From: a virus | DNA length: 47,422 nt | UHGV virus genome: UHGV-0327568 | Reading direction: 5' to 3' (one strand) | In this document: in pieces, positions 22,331 through 33,522 of the stretch | Layout of the letters: every line of letters starts with the position of its first letter | Position numbering within the stretch: the stretch's first letter is position 1 | Made by a program: the position numbers and the translations under genes | The notes under the pieces: model-generated | Database searches by the model: none | Told to the model about the DNA's origin: nothing | The model's input: the letters and a program-made list of their open reading frames with translations, nothing else

Positions 22331-23731
22331 ATGATTGTCAAAATTGGCGACAAGTGGGTCGTTAAATCCAAGGATGGCTCGCACCAGTTTGGCGAGTACG
22401 ATACCGAAGAGGCGGCTAAAAAGCGCCTTGCTGAGGTGGAGGCATTCAAGCACATGAATAATAAATTACAGGTTAACATCCTGTATACCATCAATTCGGC
22501 CAGCAACATCAGTGAAAAAATCATTGATGGCGACCAGCACTACGTCATCAAGAATGTCGTGCCGGTGGTAGATGATATTGTCATGAATGGCGGTCTGTAC
22601 CCTGGCGATGAGATTAAAAAATCATTCCATGGGCTTGACGGGAAACCAGCGCCGTATGACCACCCGAAGATTGACGGTAAATATGTGTCGGCCAACATGA
22701 CGCGAGCGGCCAATCAGTTCAGTGTTGGTGCATGGATTGAGAACTCATCTCATGACGGCAGCAAGGCGCTGGTAGACCTTTATATTAACAAGGTGGTAGC
22801 TGAGCGATCTGATAAAGGCAGGGAGTTACTATCGCGTATTGATGGCCTCAAAATTAACAGCGCCGATGCTGAACCTGTTCAGGTGTCTACCGGTCTGTTA
22901 CTCAACCGCGAGCAGGCATCAGGAACCTCTAAGGGTAAAAAATATTCCTGGATTGCCCGAAATATGGAGTGGGACCACCTCGCCATTCTTCCTCCAGGGG
23001 TCCCAGGGGCTGGAACACCAGAAGATGGTGTTGGCATTTTTGCCACCAATGGCGAAGACATTGAGCGCGTCGTGGTTAACCTTGAGGAATCGGCTATTCC
23101 AGACGAAAGTGCAAACAAAATCAAATGGTGGCAGCGCGCCATCAATCGCCTGACTGGCAATCAACTGTCATTCACCGATATTACCGAGCAGCTCCGCAAT
23201 ATCATCAAGGCCGAGATGCCAGCCGACTCGTGGCCTTACATCGTCGCCGTTTATGATAATTACTTCGGCGTTGAGATTGACGGCACCATTTATATGCAGT
23301 CCTACATCGTCCGTGAGGATATGGTAGAATTAGTCGGTGAACGGGTTAAGGCTGTTTATAAGACAGAGCTTGAACCGGTAAAAACAACTCAAGGGGAAAT
23401 CTCAATGACTAACGAGGAATTACAGGCTGTATTAGCCGATGCCCTCAAACCGGTTCAGGAATCGTTGACCGCAGTCAACCAGAAACTGGCCGATGTGGAG
23501 GCGCAAAACAAAACCCTACGCGACCAGCTGCAAGCCAATGCTGCGCAAGAAGAGACCGCAATGCGCACCGCCATTATGGCTGAGCTGAAGTTGCCGGAAT
23601 CTGCTGTTAATGCGCTGACTGGCGAAGCACTGCGTGAAACCTATGCACTCACCAGTAAAGCGGCTCCGATTTCCGGCGGGTTCCAGCCGAACCGCGCCGA
23701 AGAAGATTTTGATATGGAGGCACCTGAATAA
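22331..23731 (+). CDS. Putative head scaffolding/maturation protein (DUF2213-like N-terminus, coiled-coil C-terminus)
   Basis: 466 aa immediately upstream of the capsid genes. The C-terminal half is alpha-helical and Q/A/E-rich. Confidence 0.45.
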
Positions 23732-24198
23732 TGGCTACTATCCGTTATGGCACCATCATCGGCGGCCCGGCCCGCAAAAATGACCCGCAGATTCGTGAAG
23801 GCATCATGAAGGCAGCGTTGAAGCCGGGCGCACTGGTTGACTTCAATACTGCCGATGACAAAATCATCGCACACGCTACCGCTGGTGGTCAGGGTTTCCC
23901 TTATGTGCTCCAGCATAACTACCTCGGTGGTGGTGATGTATCTGAAGATGTTCCCGCTGACGCTACTGGCATGGCTGTGCAGTGTGAATTTGGCGTCACC
24001 TATCACGCACTGGTTGCTAAATCTTCCGAACTGAAGAAAGGCACTCCGCTGGCAAGTGATGGCTCCGGCGCGTTAAAGGTTGCAGAAGCAGGTGAAAATA
24101 TCCTGTTTTATGCGTATGAAGCCTACACCGTAGCATCTGATGGCGATGAACTCGTTGCAGTTCGTCGCGCTGGCAATGCTGCAATGCCTGCGGCGTAA
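23731..24198 (+). CDS. Putative head structural/decoration protein
   Basis: 155 aa, Gly/Ala-rich, between scaffold and major capsid. Confidence 0.4.
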
Positions 24199-24209
24199 GG
24201 AGCCGAACA

Positions 24210-25298
24210 ATGGAAAAGATTATCTTTACGAAAGGCTTAATCACCAACTCGCAGGTGGTTAAAGAGCAATGGCGCCACCTGACTGTTGACCGCAAGGTTT
24301 TCATCAATGGTGAAAACGCTCTGGCGAAAGAGTACGGCGTAAACGCCACCGCACTGGTAACGAAAGACTACTGGCGCGAAGTGGACGACGTGACCACCCG
24401 TGTATTCCGCAACGAGTCCGGCATGGACATGATGGCCGACCTGATGACGCTAGCGACCAACATCAATATCGGTAAGACCGTAGCGATCAGCCGCATGGCC
24501 TCCGATGCTGGCAAGGTTGTGCGCACCATCTCCGGTCAGGAGCCTGAAGACCTGGATAAAACCCGCTATTCCTACAGTGGCGATGTAATTCCGATCTTCA
24601 AAACCGGTTATGGCCGAGAGTGGCGCGAGCTGATGGGTATGCAGTCCGAAGGTTTCGACCCTCTGATTGATGACCAGGAAAGCACCACCTTCAACCTGCG
24701 CGCAGACATGGCGGATTATCTGCTGGTCGGCGATGCAAGCCTGAACGTGAACGGCGTTTATACTGCCTACGGCATCACCAACCACCCGAACACCGTGCAG
24801 CTCAACCTAGGCCCCTCTGGCACTGGCGCGCTGAGCATCGACCTGCAAACGGCAACCCCTGATGAAATCGTTAAGTTCTTCAACCAGGATTTCCAGGCGG
24901 TTCTCGATGCGCAAAACGTGTTCGAGCCGGTTACTCTGTGGGTTTCTCCGTCTGTGCGTCGCTCATTCAGCCGCCCGTATTCCAACGCGGCAGGCTTCAA
25001 AGGCGGCACCATTGAGGATTATATCCTCGCATTCGGCAAAACCGGCAACGTTGGCCGCATCGCGTCTATCGGCACCAACTTCAAGCTGACCGGGAACCAT
25101 TTTGTCGGCTATGTGAAGAATGCGCTGTATATCCGCCCTCGCGTCGCTCAGCCGGTATCTACCTATGCAGAGCCGCGTACCACGCCTCACGCTAACTTTA
25201 ACTTTTTAACGTGGGCTGCTATGGGTTTGCAAATTCGCCGGGATTTCTCTGGCCGAAGCAAGGTGTTTAACGCATACGGCACGCAAACCGCGCTGTAA
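24210..25298 (+). CDS. Major capsid protein
   Basis: 362 aa. Position after the scaffold gene. Strong RBS and strong terminator suggest a highly expressed late gene. Confidence 0.65.
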   Translation: MEKIIFTKGLITNSQVVKEQWRHLTVDRKVFINGENALAKEYGVNATALVTKDYWREVDDVTTRVFRNESGMDMMADLMTLATNINIGKTVAISRMASDAGKVVRTISGQEPEDLDKTRYSYSGDVIPIFKTGYGREWRELMGMQSEGFDPLIDDQESTTFNLRADMADYLLVGDASLNVNGVYTAYGITNHPNTVQLNLGPSGTGALSIDLQTATPDEIVKFFNQDFQAVLDAQNVFEPVTLWVSPSVRRSFSRPYSNAAGFKGGTIEDYILAFGKTGNVGRIASIGTNFKLTGNHFVGYVKNALYIRPRVAQPVSTYAEPRTTPHANFNFLTWAAMGLQIRRDFSGRSKVFNAYGTQTAL

Positions 25299-25537: not shown

Positions 25538-25568
25538 TAAACCCGCAAACAAGCGGGTTTTTTATTGG
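25538..25568 (+). terminator. Rho-independent terminator
   Basis: AACCCGC-aaacaa-GCGGGTT followed by TTTTATT. Confidence 0.6.
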
Positions 25569-25576
25569 GGGTTATC

Positions 25577-26395
25577 ATGGCTGTCAGGTACGAAATAAAC
25601 ACAACTCCGGCTGACGGAGAAGTTTTGCTTAGCGAAACCATGTCAGCAGACTGGACTGCATTGCAGGTGCAGATTGTGCCATTAAATTCTTCCGGCGGTC
25701 ATGCACCATTAACAAGCGGCTCTGTTTCCGTAATGGTGTCTCCGTTCGCGTCTGGTGATTTCTGGATTGACGTTAACAATAATAATTATTATGGCGTGGC
25801 ATTGCGACTGAAAGTAATCAAGTCGCAGCTTCCTGCTGGCGTTGCATCCCTGAAAGTCCTGGTGTGGCGAGCTGATACCTCAGTGCCATCAAGTCAGGTT
25901 GTCGCGCAGTCCTACTCGGAGCTTGCCAATAAGCAGGGAAAGCTATTCACCGCATCGCGTCGCGTGACCGATGTTGCTGGCGGGGCCAACCTTGACAGCA
26001 TTTTTATTACCGGCTCAAAGCAGGTCGTGTTCAATCAGCGCATCATTGGCTACACCGGTAAGGGTGTCATAGCATCCATTTACCGTGGGGCTGTAGCCAC
26101 TGGCGGCACCGCTGCGGAGATTAACAACCCAAATGATGTTGCTCCCCATGCTGCAACGGCACAGCTTCTGACTGGCTCTACGGTTACAAGCATTGGGCAG
26201 CTGACGGTGGCCGCGACCTATAGTGAAGGGAACGCATCTAATCAGTGGCAGGGCAATTCACAGGCAAAACTCGGTGAACAGGTTATCATGGCGCCTAATA
26301 CTACCTACCTGTTACGCATTACATCCCTGGATACTGCGGCGCAAACTATCAATGCTTACGTTTCGTGGTTTGAGGATGACGCTTATCTTCCGTGA
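25577..26395 (+). CDS. Putative virion structural protein (beta-rich)
   Basis: Start ATG 25577 (GGGGG RBS). 273 aa, S/T/G/V-rich. Confidence 0.4.
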   Translation: MAVRYEINTTPADGEVLLSETMSADWTALQVQIVPLNSSGGHAPLTSGSVSVMVSPFASGDFWIDVNNNNYYGVALRLKVIKSQLPAGVASLKVLVWRADTSVPSSQVVAQSYSELANKQGKLFTASRRVTDVAGGANLDSIFITGSKQVVFNQRIIGYTGKGVIASIYRGAVATGGTAAEINNPNDVAPHAATAQLLTGSTVTSIGQLTVAATYSEGNASNQWQGNSQAKLGEQVIMAPNTTYLLRITSLDTAAQTINAYVSWFEDDAYLP

Positions 26396-26401
26396 TAAAA
26401 G

Positions 26402-26428
26402 AAAAGCCCCGACAGGGGCTTTGTTTAC
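26402..26428. terminator. Bidirectional rho-independent terminator
   Basis: AAAGCCCC-gaca-GGGGCTTT. Confidence 0.65.
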
Positions 26429-26679
26429 TTATGGTCGCGAAGTTGAATGAGATTATCAATCAGCCGCTGGATTGCGGCATTATCTTTAAATGCGATGTAA
26501 ATTTCAGACTCATCAGTATCATTAGTTTTATCGCCAGGAATGCCGCGATTTATGGTATTCGCAAAAGCTATTAACTTTTCTCCATTGCAATAGCCAAATT
26601 TAATGCCAACGTAACCATCGCCAAGACGGGCAACTTTTGAGCCATCTTTCTGAGTAAAAACACCATTCTTTTTCATCAC
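26425..26679 (-). CDS. Hypothetical protein
   Basis: 84 aa; last gene of the leftward cassette. Confidence 0.45.
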   Translation of the reverse strand: MMKKNGVFTQKDGSKVARLGDGYVGIKFGYCNGEKLIAFANTINRGIPGDKTNDTDESEIYIAFKDNAAIQRLIDNLIQLRDHK

Positions 26680-27215
26680 TAAATCCTCATTGGCATAACG
26701 ATAACTTTTGCAGTCTCGCCAGTAGGCGCACTGATGTTTGCGACGGCGGCGCTGGTGTTGCCATTCAACTCAAATAGCACCGCTTCAAATTTCGGGTTAA
26801 ACAACTTCGCCAGCTTCTCAACATCTTCCAGGTATTTGGCATTAAAGCCAATCTGTTCCGCTGGTGCGGTCTGCTTAGGAATGACGCGATCAATATCAGG
26901 GAATCGGCCATTAATCTCAGAGCAGATACCTGCGCCTACCATGATTTCATGCTCGTCATGGTAAGTAACAATACCTGTTTTGGTGTCCAGTAGCGCATGC
27001 GCATAACGCTTAGTTGGCGACTTGCTTACCGATACGATGACGTTACTTTTTATCTTGTTTTCGTGCTTACTGGCAATCATGGCGCGATGACCGTCAGTTG
27101 ACGCAATGCGACCATCAGGCATGAAGCAGATTCCGTTCAGGTAGTAGCGCACATCGTTGCGCGCCTGAAATATTAATGCTGATTCAAGTAATAGTTTGTT
27201 GATTTTTAGTTTCAT
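26679..27215 (-). CDS. Truncated DNA polymerase III beta sliding-clamp (DnaN) homolog
   Basis: 178 aa. NDVRYYLNGICF...ASTDGHRAMIA matches DnaN QDVRYYLNG...ATDGHRLAV. INGRFPDIDRVIPK matches DnaN LVDGRFPDYRRVLPK. C-terminal AKVIVMPMRI matches the DnaN C-terminus AAYVVMPMRL. Covers domain II and a shortened domain III only. Confidence 0.6.
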   Translation of the reverse strand: MKLKINKLLLESALIFQARNDVRYYLNGICFMPDGRIASTDGHRAMIASKHENKIKSNVIVSVSKSPTKRYAHALLDTKTGIVTYHDEHEIMVGAGICSEINGRFPDIDRVIPKQTAPAEQIGFNAKYLEDVEKLAKLFNPKFEAVLFELNGNTSAAVANISAPTGETAKVIVMPMRI

Positions 27216-27388
27216 CACTTCACCTTTATCATGTGTTGTTTTGCAACCTTCAGGCATTCATCGAAAATCTTGCCATTCTTTTCACTCTGGTTGCTCCTGT
27301 AGTGGGTAATTGCGGCCTCTATAGCCGCGTTGTCGATGCCTGGCAGTTTTTCGCGCAGGTTTTTCTCTATGAATTGCTCGGGGTTCAT
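27215..27388 (-). CDS. Small hypothetical protein (57 aa)
   Basis: MNPEQFIEKNLREKLPGIDNAAIEAAITHY... TGATG overlap with the clamp-like gene and RBS GAGGTCAG. Confidence 0.35.
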   Translation of the reverse strand: MNPEQFIEKNLREKLPGIDNAAIEAAITHYRSNQSEKNGKIFDECLKVAKQHMIKVK

Positions 27389-28320
27389 TAAACTGACCTC
27401 ATGAATGCTTTAATGAATTCCGCTGCGACTTGCGGGACGATGGCATTGCCATAACCGCGCAGTCGTCCCACCCTGGCGGGAATCCCATTAGCCAGCGGGA
27501 ATGTGCCGGGCTCAACTGGCCGGAACTTTCCATCCCGGCATCCGAGCCAGTCAGCATCTGACCAGAATCCGTGATGCGGATTGGTTGCGTTATCGCTGCA
27601 AAATCCTGCAGACGCTGTTGTATCTTGCTCCCGTCCTTCCGATACATAGTTAGTGCGTTTTCTGGTGCAGCAGCCCTGTCGTTGCTGTTCGCAGTTGGGC
27701 TGGGCAATGCGGCCAGCTTCGCCTGTCCGGGTAGCTTCAGGCATATCTTTCTGTCCTTCCCGCTGTAGCAATGCGTGCTGCCAGTTGTGTCGTTCACTAT
27801 TGGTGTCGCCCAGTTGCATCGCGCCGAAGAAAAGTCTGTCGCGTTTGTGTGGTGCACCGACGCTGCACGCTGGCAATACTGCCGACCCGCAGGCGTAGCC
27901 TTTGTCTTCCAGGTTAAGGAATACAAAATCGAGCCAGTGCTTTCCAATTGCTGCCGCAACCTGCTCTCCAAACAGCAATTGAGGCTTGCACTCTCTGATG
28001 AGCCTGAGAAATGCTGGGGCAAGGTGCCGCTCGTCGTCAAATCCGAGAGACTTACCGGCAACGCTAAACGGCTGGCAAGGTGGTGATCCTGTCCAGAGCT
28101 GAGTGCTTGCTGGTATTCCAGCCAACTGGAGTGCAAGGGGCCACCCTCCGATTCCGGCAAAGAAGTGACACTGTGTAAATCCTTCCAGGTCTGAAGGGGT
28201 GACTTCGGTGATTGATCGTTCATCGACATATCCGTAAGGAATTAGTTTATTGTTAATTAACTCTCGCAGCCACGCCGCTGCACTTGCGTCCCATTCGTTG
28301 TAGTAGCTGGCTGTCATCAC
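27388..28320 (-). CDS. DNA (cytosine-5)-methyltransferase
   Basis: Motif I FFAGIGG, motif IV SPPCQPFS, ENV-like FGEQV, motif VIII HKRDRLFF and motif X GNAIVPQVAAEF. A long Q/R/C-rich variable region lies between motifs VIII and X. Confidence 0.85.
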   Translation of the reverse strand: MMTASYYNEWDASAAAWLRELINNKLIPYGYVDERSITEVTPSDLEGFTQCHFFAGIGGWPLALQLAGIPASTQLWTGSPPCQPFSVAGKSLGFDDERHLAPAFLRLIRECKPQLLFGEQVAAAIGKHWLDFVFLNLEDKGYACGSAVLPACSVGAPHKRDRLFFGAMQLGDTNSERHNWQHALLQREGQKDMPEATRTGEAGRIAQPNCEQQRQGCCTRKRTNYVSEGREQDTTASAGFCSDNATNPHHGFWSDADWLGCRDGKFRPVEPGTFPLANGIPARVGRLRGYGNAIVPQVAAEFIKAFMRSV

Positions 28321-29132
28321 AGCTTCTCCAGAATAGCCAGAACTTCACTCAACTCAGCGGAAGGAAGGCGCAAAAATTCTTCTGTCTCCTGTGCCACATG
28401 ACCCTCAGCGACAACCATATGGTCTGCTTCTTTCAGCAACTGAATCAGGCGGTCAATCGGCTTAACTTTTTTGGCCTTGAGCGTTTTAGCCGTCACCTTA
28501 TCTTTGCCCTGCGCTTTCGCTTCCTCAACGGCGGCATCAATAACGTTAACGGCATCATCGCCATGCTCACGTGCGACCGCAACGGCGTTGGCATAGCTGA
28601 TTTGGCCTGCATTGATACGCTGCTTGATGGCATCAGGTACATCACCAAGTGACAGGTGCATTTGCACATCAGACACAGAGCGCCCGACCTTCTTGGCGAT
28701 TTCTTCATTCGTCCACCCGAACCCTTTGAGGCGCACATAAGCCTTTGCACGCTCAAGCGGGTCGAGTTGCTTGCCCTGACTTGAAGACACCATGAAGGCG
28801 ATTTTATCCGCCTCATCGCCGGTGAAGTCTTTGCACTCAATTCGCGCAATTGGCACGCCGCGCTCAATGGCACGCAGTGCTCCAAGGTAACGATGCTGGC
28901 CGTCAAGAATCTTGATGCGCTTTCCGTCGGCATCAGGAATAACAGTTAACGCCGGGATTGGCTGTCCTGATTCCCAACACTGCGCGAAGTATTCAACGTG
29001 CTGCTCATCGGCTTCGCGGATGTTGTACCCCGGCTCAAGGTAAAGCTGGTCGACAGGGACCTGATAACCTTTGTTGACCACGATTCCGCCGCGAGTTTCT
29101 TTGTCTGAGTAAATTTTTCCGAGAGATGTCAT
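28317..29132 (-). CDS. ParB-like nuclease-domain protein
   Basis: KILDGQHRYLGALRA is the ParB/Srx-type DGxHR motif. Start chosen at ATG 29132 (GAGGGA RBS). The ORF track extends to 29168. Confidence 0.65.
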   Translation of the reverse strand: MTSLGKIYSDKETRGGIVVNKGYQVPVDQLYLEPGYNIREADEQHVEYFAQCWESGQPIPALTVIPDADGKRIKILDGQHRYLGALRAIERGVPIARIECKDFTGDEADKIAFMVSSSQGKQLDPLERAKAYVRLKGFGWTNEEIAKKVGRSVSDVQMHLSLGDVPDAIKQRINAGQISYANAVAVAREHGDDAVNVIDAAVEEAKAQGKDKVTAKTLKAKKVKPIDRLIQLLKEADHMVVAEGHVAQETEEFLRLPSAELSEVLAILEKL

Positions 29133-29141
29133 CTTTCCCTC

Positions 29142-29256
29142 ACTTTGATAAACAGATTGCACTGGCAATGGCGAATCCGATAACGATTAACGCCAGCTTG
29201 ATTTTGAACTTATCCCACGCCTTCAGGTCTTCTTTTCGTATTTCGTGGCGGATCAT
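29142..29256 (-). CDS. Small membrane protein (38 aa)
   Basis: MIRHEIRKEDLKAWDKFKIKLALIVIGFAIASAICLSK with one TMD. ATGA overlap with the upstream gene. Confidence 0.35.
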
Positions 29257-29564
29257 TGGGGTTCTCCGAGTGCTTTTGCGATTGCGGCATAGGCCTTGCT
29301 CAAGGCAGTGGCATTCCTTTTTGTTGGCGTAGTGAAGACTACAAGCATCTCCAGAGCCTCCAGCAATTCCGGCGCAGCGGCCATCATTCGTTGGTTGGCA
29401 ACTTGAACCTCAACTTCAGGGTCAAACTCAACCCAGCCGACAGGAATAATCACTCCATAAGACTGGTCGTCATCTGTTGATTTTGGCCCTATTGCCCTGC
29501 TGTTATCTCCAAACCACGGCCCCGGCGTACCTTTGAATTCATTCATCCTCATCACCTCTAACAT
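29253..29564 (-). CDS. Hypothetical protein
   Basis: 103 aa; first gene of the leftward cassette. Confidence 0.45.
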   Translation of the reverse strand: MLEVMRMNEFKGTPGPWFGDNSRAIGPKSTDDDQSYGVIIPVGWVEFDPEVEVQVANQRMMAAAPELLEALEMLVVFTTPTKRNATALSKAYAAIAKALGEPQ

Positions 29565-29586
29565 TTATTGTTGTTTCTACGTCATC

Positions 29587-29615
29587 ACTATAGCGACACC
29601 CTCAATCTACGTCAA
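29587..29615 (-). promoter_or_regulatory. Leftward sigma70 promoter TTGACG-17-TATAGT
   Basis: Reverse complement of 29610-29615 is TTGACG, spacer 17, reverse complement of 29587-29592 is TATAGT. The hexamers are identical to the rightward promoter at 6804-6832. Confidence 0.55.
29604..29615 (+). repeat. Conserved element copy 5: AATCTACGTCAA (partial copy TCTACGTCA at 29575-29583)
   Basis: Within CTCAATCTACGTCAACAC; divergent junction 29564 (-) / 29777 (+). Confidence 0.7.
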
Positions 29616-30900: not shown

Positions 30901-31317
30901 ATGGCCGCCAAAATGAGAGGTATCCAGCAGGCGATTAAGCGTACCCAGCAGATAGTCGGTGAGATTACTGGTGAGAAGGCGGTATCAGCAATAAAAGCCG
31001 CCAACCACATCATCAGGACTGAATCGGCCTCCATGACGCCAGTAGCCACGTCAACGCTGATAAATAGCCAGTATGACACCGTTGAGGTTAATGGCACTCG
31101 CATAACTGGCAAGATTGGGTATTCCGCTAATTACGCCCTGTATGTCCATAATGCACCAGGTAAATTGCTTGGCACGAATACGCCGCGCACAGGACGGCTC
31201 AAAGGAAAGGGTAACGTGTGGGATAAAAGCGGCGAGCCTAAATTCCTTCTCAAGGCTGGCGAAAACACACGCGAACTTGTCGATCAGGTAATTAAAAAAG
31301 AGATGACGCTAAAATGA
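30901..31317 (+). CDS. HK97 gp10-family tail component
   Basis: KIGYSANYALYVHNAPG resembles the YA.YVE.G core of the gp10 family. Confidence 0.45.
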   Translation: MAAKMRGIQQAIKRTQQIVGEITGEKAVSAIKAANHIIRTESASMTPVATSTLINSQYDTVEVNGTRITGKIGYSANYALYVHNAPGKLLGTNTPRTGRLKGKGNVWDKSGEPKFLLKAGENTRELVDQVIKKEMTLK

Positions 31318-31697
31318 GAGATATGCTTGAGCTTGTTGACCAGTACCTTAGCGATGCCGGTCTTTATGATGGGTGGACTTCTCAGCTTGAGTTCTGGAAC
31401 GATACCGAAGTTGGCGCAGATCGGTTTATGGTGCTGCAATCCAATGGCGGCACGAACGTAAGCAAAGACCTCAGCAATGATTATTATTTTTCGCTCTATG
31501 TTGTCGGCCAGCAGGGCCAGTACAACATCGAAGAAACAAAGGCAAAAGCGCTTGATGTCATCGCATACATCAAAGAGCATCCAGTTGATAGTTGTATTGG
31601 AATGATTCAGTTGCAGGCGCCGCTTGGCCGCCCTACGCTTACGACAGAGAAAAGGCCTGTTTATGAATTGTTGCTGAGGGTTGTTTTTGGTGAGTGA
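31314..31697 (+). CDS. Putative tail terminator/completion protein
   Basis: 127 aa immediately before the major tail region. The stop abuts the tRNA gene. Confidence 0.35.
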   Translation: MRDMLELVDQYLSDAGLYDGWTSQLEFWNDTEVGADRFMVLQSNGGTNVSKDLSNDYYFSLYVVGQQGQYNIEETKAKALDVIAYIKEHPVDSCIGMIQLQAPLGRPTLTTEKRPVYELLLRVVFGE

Positions 31698-31774
31698 TGG
31701 TTCCCGCGACAGGATTCGAACCTGTAATCATCCGATTATGAGTCGGGTGCTTTAACCAGTTAAGCTAAACGGGA
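31698..31774 (-). tRNA. tRNA-Met/Ile2 (anticodon CAT), CCA encoded
   Basis: Manual cloverleaf fold. Acceptor TCCCGTT/CGCGGGA with one mismatch. D-stem GCTT/AAGC. Anticodon loop CTCATAA. T-arm ACAGG-TTCGAAT-CCTGT. Ends A-CCA. Confidence 0.8.
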
Positions 31775-31777
31775 ATT

Positions 31778-31854
31778 TGGTGCACCATACTGGATTCGAA
31801 CCAGTTACCGATTGCTTAGAAGGCAATTGCTCTATCCTGATGAGCTAATGGTGC
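31778..31854 (-). tRNA. tRNA-Arg (anticodon TCT), CCA encoded
   Basis: Acceptor GCACCAT/ATGGTGC. D-stem GCTC/GAGC. Anticodon stem ATTGC/GCAAT with loop CTTCTAA. T-arm ACTGG-TTCGAAT-CCAGT. Ends A-CCA. Lies 3 nt from the tRNA-Met gene. Confidence 0.9.
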
Positions 31855-31856
31855 GT

Positions 31857-31995
31857 TGTGTTGTGGTGAGTGGAGTCGAACCACCTTCCATCAGTGCGCT
31901 GCTGATTGGGTTACGCGCATCCTGCGGTTACTTATCCGGAATCTTCACCGCAAAACTATTCCCTAGCTCGCCGTTGAGCTTCACCACAACGATAA
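31857..31995 (-). other. tRNA-like remnant / candidate third tRNA (no clean cloverleaf)
   Basis: Minus-strand GGTGG-TTCGACT-CCACT is a canonical T-arm 8 nt from tRNA-Arg. The matching acceptor TGTGGTG...CACCACA lies 127 nt apart, or 91 nt apart with one mismatch. No CCA. Confidence 0.3.
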
Positions 31996-32723
31996 ACCAA
32001 CTCACTTAACCACATGAATCGTACAACTCAAAGGTGGTAAATTGATTTACCTGTTGTGTGCCGGGATTCCACCGGCTCCCATCTGTTTTTTAAGACACTC
32101 ATATATCGTCTGGTCTTGTTGTGGTGGCCGGTGCTGTTCTCCGGCGTTGCCTACCCTTAGTGAATCGGTTTTTCCGCTCGAGTCCGGAAAGGCATGGGAA
32201 ACCGCCCACCCTAAACCATCGCATCAGCCTGCGCATTCACCACAACGGAAAGAGCACTCATTGCATCGACCAAACAGAATCGTCTTTTCGATTATGACTC
32301 TACTTTAACGGTTGCTCTGCTGCGCTAACCCAATGCTCTTACCTGTTGTGTGCCCATTATTAATCACACCGGGCCAGTGCGCCGAATTCATTGACAAGGA
32401 GTCGGAAGACCTTGCTGGTGTTTAGCCGTTAGGCTACTGCCAGATACATTTCTTCGTTTGCATTTATCTTTGTGGTCAGTTTCTAAAAACCCGCAAAGTC
32501 GCCACGAAAACTATCGGAAAGAGCGCTTTAAGCCTTACCACATCTACTTTTGCGCATAAGTCGTCACCTGTGCGGGGATGTCCCCTGAAGCTACTTAACA
32601 GCGCTCTTACCTGATAGTTGCTGGCGTCTCAAATTAACAGTAAATCCGAATGCCACCTGTCAATCTTCCTGCATTCTGCGACCAGCAAGTTAAATCTACA
32701 CCACCAATCAAAAGCTGTCAACA

Positions 32724-32732
32724 TGATATAAT
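32724..32732 (+). promoter_or_regulatory. Extended -10 (TGaTATAAT) upstream of the major tail gene
   Basis: CATGATATAAT lies 35 nt before ATG 32767 (RBS AGAGAGG). Confidence 0.4.
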
Positions 32733-32766
32733 GCGATTGTTTAGCTAAACAGAGAGGATTCTAAAC

Positions 32767-33522
32767 ATGGCTATTTGTGCAAATGATAACGGCATCATCA
32801 CAGGTCGCCAGTCGCTCATCGAGCTGGCTGATGGCTGCTGGGATGCTGTACCAGCAGAGGAAGATTGGAAGTTTTTTGCTCCAATGACCTCAAAAGGCGT
32901 CGACTTCAGCCCAAGCACCACTACCTCAGAGGCTGATGATGGCGATGGCTTTGTTGCGACGCTGGTCACTACCGCAGACCTCACCATTTCTGGTGATTTT
33001 GAGGTTCGCAAGGCTGATAAGGCTGATGAGTATGGCGTACATAACCTCATCAAATACTTTGTCACCGAAGTAAAAGCTCGTCGTCAGCCTTCGCTGTGGG
33101 TGCGTCAGACCACCGGTAATACCGTTGTTGTTGCCTACTGCAACATTACCGCTCTGAGCTACGATGGCGGCACCAACGACATTATCACCGGCTCAGTTGA
33201 ATTCAAGCCATATGATGGCTCTACAGTTAACGTGTCAAGCATCGAAGATTTGACACTGACAACTGATATCAGTGCAGACAAAAGCGTTGCCACTAACGGC
33301 ACTCTGACGCTCGGTCCGGTAGTTGCGGCTGGCGGTGTCGCGCCTTATACCTACCAATGGTATAAAGGCACTTCGCCGATCAGCAGTGCTACTACCAACA
33401 CGTTCACCAAGACCACTGCTGCCGAAGGTGATGCTGGTACGTACTTCTGCCGCGTGATGGATTCGGCAACCAGTCCTGATTACGTTGACTCCACCAAGTG
33501 TATTGTTACCGTTACGCAATAA
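32767..33522 (+). CDS. Major tail (tube) protein with C-terminal Ig-like domain
   Basis: 251 aa. The C-terminal ~80 aa (LTLGPVVAAGGVAPYTYQWYKG...GTYFCRVMD) looks like a bacterial Ig-like (Big_2) domain, as in lambda gpV-type tail proteins. Confidence 0.6.
   Translation: MAICANDNGIITGRQSLIELADGCWDAVPAEEDWKFFAPMTSKGVDFSPSTTTSEADDGDGFVATLVTTADLTISGDFEVRKADKADEYGVHNLIKYFVTEVKARRQPSLWVRQTTGNTVVVAYCNITALSYDGGTNDIITGSVEFKPYDGSTVNVSSIEDLTLTTDISADKSVATNGTLTLGPVVAAGGVAPYTYQWYKGTSPISSATTNTFTKTTAAEGDAGTYFCRVMDSATSPDYVDSTKCIVTVTQ

Follow-up and report, generated by a model that had tools for sequence, protein, structure and literature searches.

The orphan C5 DNA methyltransferases of the Bacillus phages SPR, phi3T and rho11s are multispecific enzymes in which tandem recognition modules, differing between related phages, are placed between the conserved motifs VIII and IX. 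The parts of such an enzyme can also be divided between polypeptides, as in M.AquI, in which the catalytic motifs are found on one chain and motifs IX and X, together with part of the recognition domain, on the other. M.AquI is a two-subunit C5 methyltransferase (PMC3404938, PMC5944983). In M.EcoHK31I, the alpha polypeptide contains motifs I-VIII, motif X and the recognition domain, the beta polypeptide contains motif IX, and activity requires the two together; removal of the beta start codons by mutations silent in alpha abolished methylation (PMC2836561). This enzyme was the only described precedent for a nested methylase beta polypeptide found in the literature. Here, we describe a locus of the UHGV virus genome UHGV-0327568 (the window, the whole stretch of 47,422 nt that was analysed), in which a leftward cassette at approximately 26,403-29,615 of the minus strand contains a C5 methylase gene (27388-28320) and, wholly inside it and in the +1 frame, a second open reading frame (ORF) of 276 codons (27399-28229). 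The methylase frame is here named alpha and the nested frame beta. The reading that we prefer, with a probability of roughly 70%, is that of a two-polypeptide overlapping C5 methylase, in which the recognition part is carried by beta, written over the catalytic alpha gene, and which provides the phage with protection against restriction.

The length of the nested frame is in itself unusual, since only about 4e-4 of synonymous recodings of alpha leave the +1 frame open for 280 codons or more. Beta matches the families phrog_1008 (1.1e-33) and phrog_31772 (7.6e-25), and alpha (phrog_363) and beta (phrog_1008) both fall in phage families labelled DNA methyltransferase. Homologues of beta number 2196 in a database clustered at 90%, many of them with 35-60% identity over the full length, and at the 50% cluster level 19,591 representatives are found, 6,830 of which are below 1e-30. 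In all of the 80 fetched viral loci holding a relative of beta, the alpha frame is open across the whole beta match; the open runs have a median of 349 codons in alpha, 306 in beta and 39 in the third frame, and the alpha frames contain PCQ in 78 loci and GNA[IV] in 79. The same nested layout occurs in most of 74 bacterial loci, drawn from alpha-, beta-, gamma- and delta-proteobacteria (PCQ in 68/74, GNA in 69/74), and in a P2-like prophage, where the middle is longer and alpha and beta measure 381 aa and 323 aa. Furthermore, tblastn detected beta in 234 deposited phage genomes, including K1G, K1H, K1ind, epsilon15, BcepC6B, eiAU and Xanthomonas and Rhodobacter phages. In our judgement, this comparative evidence establishes the dual coding of alpha and beta. 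Traces of it are already present in the databases: the K1H record has both overlapping ORFs, ORF28 ('putative Mte8-like protein') being nested in ORF29 ('C-specific methylase'), and the RefSeq records of K1G and K1ind2 read 'DNA methyltransferase (x2)'. Beta is unannotated in the close relatives of the window phage, and the paper on BUCT541, one of these, names only a 'putative C-specific methylase' (PMC9523250). No paper interpreting the nested ORF was found in the literature on overlapping, overprinted or nested phage methylases and on Mte8.

The division of labour between the two frames was followed by counting, pairwise and window by window, synonymous and non-synonymous single-base codon differences in both frames of 67 non-redundant loci. 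Over alpha residues 1-105, which include its motifs I and IV, the ratio of non-synonymous to synonymous differences (N/S) is 0.12-0.32 in alpha and 3.4-12 in beta. At residues 121-135, facing the ..LYSLTWK.. block of beta, the values are 1.70 in alpha and 0.86 in beta; constraint is again on alpha at residues 151-165, with motif VIII (0.46 vs 3.0), and passes once more to beta over the Q/R/C-rich region of alpha, residues 166-255 (1.9-6.2 vs 0.6-2.0). A conserved block near the C-terminus of alpha, residues 256-270, has 0.34 in alpha and 1.72 in beta, the following residues 271-285, which face PAHSRWLMGFPPEWD in beta, have 1.32 and 0.48, and the end of alpha, residues 286-308, has 0.19-0.53 and 3.2-5.8, the extreme values (0.19 vs 5.8) being those of motif X. 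In the window holding alpha motif VI, the N/S of alpha is 0.70. Codon-position entropies agree with these ratios and give a beta-frame codon-position signature over the linker of alpha, that is, over its Q/R/C-rich region. Moreover, conserved glycines in the doubly constrained parts are written with one codon (GGG in 67/67, GGC in 63/63), and elsewhere with all four. The gene thus reads as a mosaic, in which the functional segments of each protein are encoded where the other frame specifies an unconstrained segment. The unconstrained segments, beta residues 1-76 and the alpha linker, are stop-free in essentially every locus in spite of their drift, as predicted if two polypeptides are separately translated. 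The family offers a deep and well-sampled case of overprinting, in which selection switches frame six or seven times within one gene.

Alpha (27388-28320, minus strand; 309/310 aa) is recognised by PF00145 (1.8e-22), by phrog_363 over its full length (1.2e-84) and by M.HhaI (1.9e-11). The AdoMet-binding motif I, FFAGIGG (residues 53-59, 28144-28164), aligns with FAGLGG of M.HhaI, motif IV, PPCQPFS (28063-28083), which includes the PCQ catalytic cysteine, with FPCQAFS, motif VI, FGEQV (27958-27972), with FMENV, and motif VIII, PHKRDR (27835-27852), with PQKRER. Motif X, GNAIVP (residues 291-296, 27433-27450), was located as a pattern match at a place that no HMM alignment covers; when 20 diverse alpha-beta pairs are aligned, G290, N291, A292 and I293 (numbered on the 309-aa form) do not vary. 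The PF00145 alignment covers only alpha residues 69-209 and ends at position 196 of the 324 of the profile. Taken with the N/S values, this end point indicates that the stretch between motifs VIII and X of alpha is devoid of the conserved recognition domain and motif IX of a single-chain C5 enzyme. An earlier note on this DNA had described a Dcm-type methyltransferase with all the canonical motifs and an unusually long Q/R/C-rich variable region. Motifs I, IV, VI, VIII and X are indeed present, while the position of motif IX is selected in the other frame; the variable region (residues 167-250, 27571-27822, about 85 residues) is real as a translation and unconserved in alpha, in which it behaves as an unconstrained linker. 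Its sequence is best read as the passenger translation, in the alpha frame, of DNA that would encode the recognition modules of beta. Judged in this way, the gene is not a single-chain Dcm-type enzyme but an overlapping alpha/beta gene pair.

Two further features of the N-terminal half of alpha were noted. A motif-II-like segment, YYNE(W/F/I)D..AA.WLR.LI, precedes motif I (FFAGIGG) within residues 6-59 (28144-28305) and aligns from position 25 of the dcm model TIGR00675, so that the motif order of alpha looks permuted. The spacing between motif I and PCQ is about 20 residues, compared with about 55 in M.HhaI.

Beta begins with an open and unconstrained segment (residues 1-76), followed by a conserved block with ..LYSLTWK..TP.GR.. 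(residues 77-135), by two W-x-T-P modules (residues 140-213) and by an invariant C-terminal block (residues 214-258). In the alignment of beta proteins, the conserved block takes the form SS.SA.LQ..L..RL...L...GS..Y.LTWK...TP.GR...AS..R, after which comes a variable middle and then the invariant end R.T.SG..LTG..A.ME..GQLNPAHSRWLMGFP.EWD.CA. The middle is made of units that each start with W-x-T/S-P, from one to five per protein across 198 betas. Single-linkage clustering merged all of the modules; under stricter thresholds at least 16 recurrent module types were separated, each occurring about once per protein and in many orders. One of them, T4 (WATPIVNDTTGSTHCYSGKDRKICLKLPGQAKLAA), a putative target-recognition module, occurs once in each of 42 betas, as the first, second or third module. 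In the window, T4 occupies beta residues 140-174 (27708-27812) and a second type, T2 (LPSPTANSNDR...QQRLQDFAAI), residues 175-213 (27591-27707); both types were assigned by eye from type examples, as the clustering left the merged middle of the window protein unassigned. The T2 module starts with Leu in place of the initial Trp (residue 175, 27705-27707) in the window and in BUCT541, and the corresponding start is WPSP or WPTP in RSU-F4K5 and most other members; the LPSP start may represent a weakening or a change of the second module.

Downstream of the modules, beta carries the motif-IX-like block QLSPAHSRWLMGFPPGW (the LNPAHSRWLMGFP block; 27468-27518), which is near-invariant in 20 of 20 aligned betas. 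The same bases are read RPVEPGTFPLANGIPAR in alpha and give motif-IX-like patterns in both frames (RPVEP.......GIP in alpha, QLSP.......MGFP in beta), a self-similarity due to CCCG and GGGATTCCCG runs, which yield P and G-[I/F]-P in each frame. It is for this reason that alpha seems to carry a motif IX and gives the impression of a complete set of motifs. The beta-frame selection at this position (0.48 vs 1.32) supports the assignment of motif IX to beta.

In several relatives, the C-terminus of beta is joined to another DNA enzyme, namely endonuclease VII, Dam (P0044, P0241) and DUF2800/PD-(D/E)XK (P0243). In BUCT541 (locus L001, 3662-5038, minus strand), the beta frame runs stop-free into the coding sequence (CDS) annotated as 'endonuclease VII', forming a beta-EndoVII fusion ORF of 458 aa, and the annotated start of EndoVII is an internal ATG overlapping the end of the methylase. 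In ZX4 (L088, 2224-3649), beta likewise continues in frame into EndoVII, with the same 17-nt CDS overlap, and P0002 (456 aa, PF02945) is a product of the same kind. In the BUCT541/ZX4 group, the gene recorded as endonuclease VII may in reality give a beta fusion as its product.

Beta is probably initiated independently, about 90 nt into alpha and in the +1 frame, as suggested by the conservation of its start region. A beta-frame ATG occurs in 66 of the 67 loci within a 45-nt window around the conserved VDERSI of alpha, and in most of the loci beta-frame stops lie just upstream. The ATG arises from Asp-Glu (GAT-GAA) or Asp-Val (GAT-GTN) of alpha, and the Asp codon that creates it is GAT in 40/67, against a preference for GAC (47-58 of about 66) at four of five other conserved Asp codons. 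A 4-mer resembling the Shine-Dalgarno sequence is found 5-16 nt upstream of the beta ATG in 56/66 loci, compared with 19% at control positions, an enrichment to which the conserved alpha peptide may contribute.

In the preferred two-polypeptide methylase, alpha would be the catalytic large domain, with motif I, the PCQ cysteine, motifs VI and VIII and the motif X helix, plus a sequence-free linker. Beta would be the counterpart of the small domain of a single-chain enzyme, formed by one to five interchangeable W-x-T-P modules and the motif-IX-like block. In terms of M.HhaI, alpha would correspond to the large domain with a loop at the position of the small domain, and beta to the small domain itself. 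The two chains most likely assemble into an active C5 methylase, as shown for M.EcoHK31I; the target sites would be set by the beta modules, T4 and T2 in the window phage, and the enzyme would modify replicating phage DNA against host restriction, this anti-restriction role being the most reasonable inference for the methylase. The heterodimer, the recognition role of beta and the anti-restriction function are all proposed by analogy with M.EcoHK31I and with the multispecific phage methylases.

The comparison with M.EcoHK31I (isoschizomer M.EaeI) is one of layout: the gene-in-gene arrangement and, probably, the split of the motifs recur in the window pair. Unlike that enzyme, the window pair is a phage orphan, without a partner restriction enzyme. 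The beta of M.EcoHK31I is clearly the smaller chain, whereas the window beta (276 aa) comes close to alpha in length. Compared with M.AquI, whose genes are adjacent and not nested, motif X in the window returns to alpha. The one to five shuffled modules of beta repeat the layout of the SPR, phi3T and rho11s methyltransferases, with tandem exchangeable units upstream of motif IX; however, those enzymes are single polypeptides encoded in one frame, whereas the window modules lie on a separate, overprinted polypeptide and a target for each module is putative. More tentatively, and at odds that we would place below even, the beta frame may be a combinatorial specificity cassette written over a catalytic gene, with modules gained, lost and shuffled by recombination that spares alpha, each module adding a target. 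The catalytic subunit would come to no harm from such shuffling, as all that alpha requires in this region is a linker that stays open, whatever its sequence.

Several observations weigh against the two-polypeptide reading. No significant or relevant match of beta was found in Pfam at E values up to 10, the beta profile gave only a chance coiled-coil match among Protein Data Bank (PDB) sequences, and AlphaFold2 models of beta, with 20 homologues, reached a mean pLDDT of 47.7, only residues 190-260 being modestly confident; for alpha, with 25 homologues, the mean pLDDT was 37.5, and the models of both chains were uninformative. The top local match of beta to M.HhaI by hhalign does fall on motif IX (273-288, KLHPRECARVMGYPDS vs QLSPAHSRWLMGFPPG), and its E value of 0.36 is not significant (the M.HhaI sequence used agrees with the parts shown in the alpha-M.HhaI alignment). 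The chain supplying motif IX is assigned from substitution patterns, and alpha offers the similar RPVEP...GIP. Furthermore, in M.EcoHK31I the recognition domain is reported in alpha, whereas in the window the conserved modular region is in beta. Translation of beta, its assembly with alpha and the 5-methylcytosine (m5C) activity of the pair are all deduced from sequence.

If alpha and beta do cooperate, they would represent a large family of naturally split methylases, with specificity residing on a small, modular and exchangeable subunit. This would bear on restriction evasion by therapeutic phages of Klebsiella, E. coli and Salmonella and on the design of programmable split methylases, for which use has already been made of M.EcoHK31I. 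Should the combinatorial cassette also be true, this would be a family of split multispecific orphan methylases with about 20,000 clusters in proteobacterial phages and prophages. At about 830 nt, the overlap would rank among the longest, and the pair among the most widespread, known from bacteria or phages for genes overlapping on one strand. A further consequence concerns annotation, as gene callers keep one of two overlapping ORFs on the same strand, and thousands of phage and prophage records consequently contain either a methylase without its putative recognition part or an unexplained hypothetical protein.

The alternative that survives best, and which we nevertheless hold to be improbable, is that beta is a real protein with a function independent of the methylase, for example in regulation through DNA binding, in anti-defence or in the targeting of other enzymes, and that alpha is active alone, with its own RPVEP...GIP...GNAIVP serving as motifs IX and X. 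This would fit the absence of significant similarity between beta and known methylase domains, its fusions to endonuclease VII, Dam and PD-(D/E)XK/DUF2800, and the alpha-frame selection on alpha residues 256-270. However, it leaves alpha without a recognition domain, the sole candidate region being the one with N/S of 1.9-6.2. In addition, beta was never found without alpha in the 80 viral loci, the position of motif IX is selected in the beta frame, and the nested-beta precedent, M.EcoHK31I, needs both chains.

A single chain could instead be produced by programmed recoding, with the ribosome translating alpha through motif VIII, moving +1 into the beta modules and motif IX, and shifting back for motif X. 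The spliced reading ...DGKFRPVEP / AHSRWLMGFPPGWDDC / GYGNAIVPQVA does resemble the textbook arrangement of motifs IX and X, and P0073 (289 aa, from a Logan assembly) is an alpha-to-beta chimera, reading alpha 1-103 and then beta. Two opposite shifts would be required, however, and neither a slippery heptamer (X_XXY_YYZ) nor a homopolymer run occurs in either frame of the methylase gene of the window. The parts that would be skipped, beta 1-76 and the alpha linker, are open in essentially all loci, which is expected only if they are translated, and the start region of beta is conserved. P0073 itself is without motifs VI-VIII and more likely results from a natural indel or from faulty assembly than from recoding. 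Among ten long beta matches scanned for an in-frame alpha-beta single chain, the extra length was Dam, PD-(D/E)XK/DUF2800 or modules, and never PF00145. We therefore consider recoding very unlikely, and programmed frameshifting was rejected, as no slippery site is present and the passenger segments stay open.

A little less credible again is the reading of the earlier note, in which the methylase is a single-chain Dcm-type enzyme, its long variable region included, and operates jointly with the ParB-like protein and clamp fragment of the cassette as a clamp-tethered or takeover-protection system. The translational coupling of the genes in one operon and the presence of ParB, methylase and DnaN-like gene together in RSU-F4K5, ZX4 and KpV2811 speak for it. 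However, the content of the methylase slot can change without loss of the ParB-like and DnaN-like genes: in the sister phage VLCpiS13c, an unrelated 115-aa gene occupies the methylase slot and both the other genes remain. In BUCT541, the methylase is present and the DnaN-like gene absent. In diverse loci, the neighbours of the alpha/beta pair (56 upstream and 57 downstream positions) are most commonly replication proteins and other methylases (SNF2 and DEAD helicases, gpA, Prim-Pol, DnaB, Dam, D12, N6_N4, MT-A70, NinB and RusA), and no ParB or clamp family is found among the 25 commonest neighbour families listed, of 54 found. The variable region, moreover, is not conserved in the alpha frame. 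A functional coupling of the methylase to the clamp or to ParB thus finds no support in these data. Slot exchange, the gene content of BUCT541 and the neighbour families together indicate that the methylase pair is a mobile module in a variable slot after ParB.

Finally, the idea that beta is non-coding and simply a consequence of the codon usage and amino-acid composition of alpha can practically be discounted, because, although synonymous recodings of alpha still give a long +1 frame (mean 120-137 codons) and no separate selection is seen on beta residues 1-76, it is contradicted by the substitution data, with purifying selection in the beta frame exactly where alpha is relaxed and synonymous codons of alpha frozen, as well as by the 35-60% amino-acid identity of beta across phyla and by both frames being open in 80/80 loci.

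The two-polypeptide methylase is part of a larger unit. The region is best explained as one leftward accessory operon, with promoter, eight genes and terminator, of a Klebsiella siphophage of the BUCT541/RSU-F4K5 type. The earlier note had listed seven tightly coupled minus-strand genes, all of which are found at the places given; the eighth, the nested beta ORF, had been overlooked. The gene identities proposed there (ParB-like protein, C5 methylase, truncated clamp and small proteins) and the operon structure were otherwise borne out. The first junction, p103/p38, overlaps by ATGA, and four later ones read TGATG, TAATG, TGATG and TAGTG; between p38 and the ParB-like gene there is a gap of 8 nt with a GAGGGA Shine-Dalgarno sequence, ahead of the ATG at 29132. 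These junctions make translational coupling plausible. Over 3.4 kb, the cassette and its surroundings match the Klebsiella siphophages BUCT541 (with 99.5% identity where the two align), RSU-F4K5, ZX4, KpV2811 and YX3973, which have a leftward cassette at the same place, the annotated relatives showing 93-99.5% DNA identity. The combination of genes, which had been thought undescribed, is thus already annotated in the deposited genomes of RSU-F4K5, ZX4 and KpV2811, where ParB, methylase and DnaN-like gene are kept together, and in BUCT541 minus the clamp-like gene. By tblastn, the ParB-like, DnaN-like, p57, p84 and p103 proteins of the window were found only in near-identical relatives. From these comparisons, the conserved core of the operon would consist of p38, the ParB-like gene, p57 and, in most relatives, the DnaN-like gene.

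Upstream of the first cassette gene lies a sigma-70-like promoter, TTGACG-17-TATAGT (29587-29615, minus strand), whose function is suggested by its position. It had been called a consensus promoter; a promoter-like site is present there, with a match of 10/12 and not the exact consensus. Its sequence is identical in BUCT541, RSU-F4K5 and L005. As a scan of the region found four promoter-like sites against 4.8 expected from shuffles, and hence no excess, the call draws on position and on identity in close relatives. At the other end, directly after the last cassette gene, a bidirectional hairpin terminator, AAAGCCCC-TGTC-GGGGCTTT with a T-run (26403-26422), is common to the operon and to the convergent plus-strand gene 25565-26395. 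The cassette is located inside the structural gene region, as had been recognised, with the head decoration gene (23731-24198) and the major head gene (24210-25298) on one flank and the Neck1/tail completion gene (30901-31317) and the major tail gene (32767-33522) on the other.

The ParB-like protein (28317-29132, minus strand; 271 aa) has an N-terminal ParB/Srx-type domain and a ParB/KorB helix-turn-helix (HTH), as in ParB, Spo0J and KorB. Its ORF is open upstream to a TTG at 29168; from the relatives and the junctions, the true starts are likely the ATG at 29132 for this protein, as taken here, and 27215 for the DnaN-like protein (178 aa). The ParB-like protein matches HTH_ParB (4.5e-11), KorB (2.6e-6) and TIGR00180 (3.5e-11), and its residues 53-205 align with both the N-terminal domain and the HTH of the Thermus thermophilus Spo0J structure 1vz0 (1.5e-11); these matches agree with the ParB/Srx-like identity and the DGQHR motif reported before. 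DGQHR lies at 28890-28904, and DGQHRYLGA aligns to GERRYRAA of Spo0J, the CTP-binding arginine patch GERRxRA of ParB/Spo0J being replaced in the window protein. No ParA-like ORF was found in the operon, either in the ORF list or by profile searches.

The sliding clamp DnaN has about 366 aa and three similar domains and forms a dimeric ring. The DnaN-like protein of the window (26679-27215, minus strand; 178 aa from the ATG at 27215) aligns to residues 136-295 and 315-366 of the Escherichia coli beta clamp (E 3e-11) and comprises domain II and a shortened domain III, without domain I, in line with the truncated fragment seen earlier. It matches TIGR00663 at 1e-10 (41 bits, against a cut-off of 137.65) and phrog_3007 at 9e-59, the protein length being 178-192 aa, and it ends in VMPMRI, as DnaN does, MPMR(I/L) being kept. 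By these alignments, it is a real derivative of the clamp, from which a canonical six-domain ring should not be able to form in the usual way. In RefSeq, this ORF is named 'RusA-like Holliday junction resolvase' in ZX4, VLCpiS13c, KpV2811 and others, a name that derives from the label of phrog_3007; profile searches with the DnaN-like protein gave no RusA match, and the name looks wrong.

For the four small proteins, p103, p38, p57 and p84, no informative matches were obtained in profile and family searches. The first cassette gene, p103 (29253-29564, minus strand; phrog_1273), probably starts a few codons further downstream, as it is annotated with 97 aa in BUCT541. In RSU-F4K5 (L002, 5575-5958), both termini of this protein are kept and the central part is different and longer (127 aa vs 103 aa); this central part is a second variable spot of the operon. 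The product of p38 (29140-29256, minus strand), whose start overlaps the stop of p103, is a small protein containing a single hydrophobic helix (LALIVIGFAIASAICL), annotated as transmembrane in RSU-F4K5. The p57 gene (27215-27388, minus strand; phrog_4439), whose start overlaps the stop of alpha through TAATG, is retained in relatives without the methylase, and p84 (26425-26679, minus strand), the last gene of the operon, was found only in L005 among the fetched loci.

On the Neck1 side of the cassette, RSU-F4K5 carries a 'transposase/putative RNA-guided endonuclease' of the TnpB type (L002, 7775-8890, minus strand) just after the Neck1 gene; in the window, the interval 31317-32767 has no ORF as large as this gene. 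Two tRNA genes, tRNA-Met (CAT) and tRNA-Arg (TCT), are located at 31698-31854 on the minus strand, amid the plus-strand neck and tail genes, and BUCT541 has an extra tRNA-Ser at the place equivalent to this pair.

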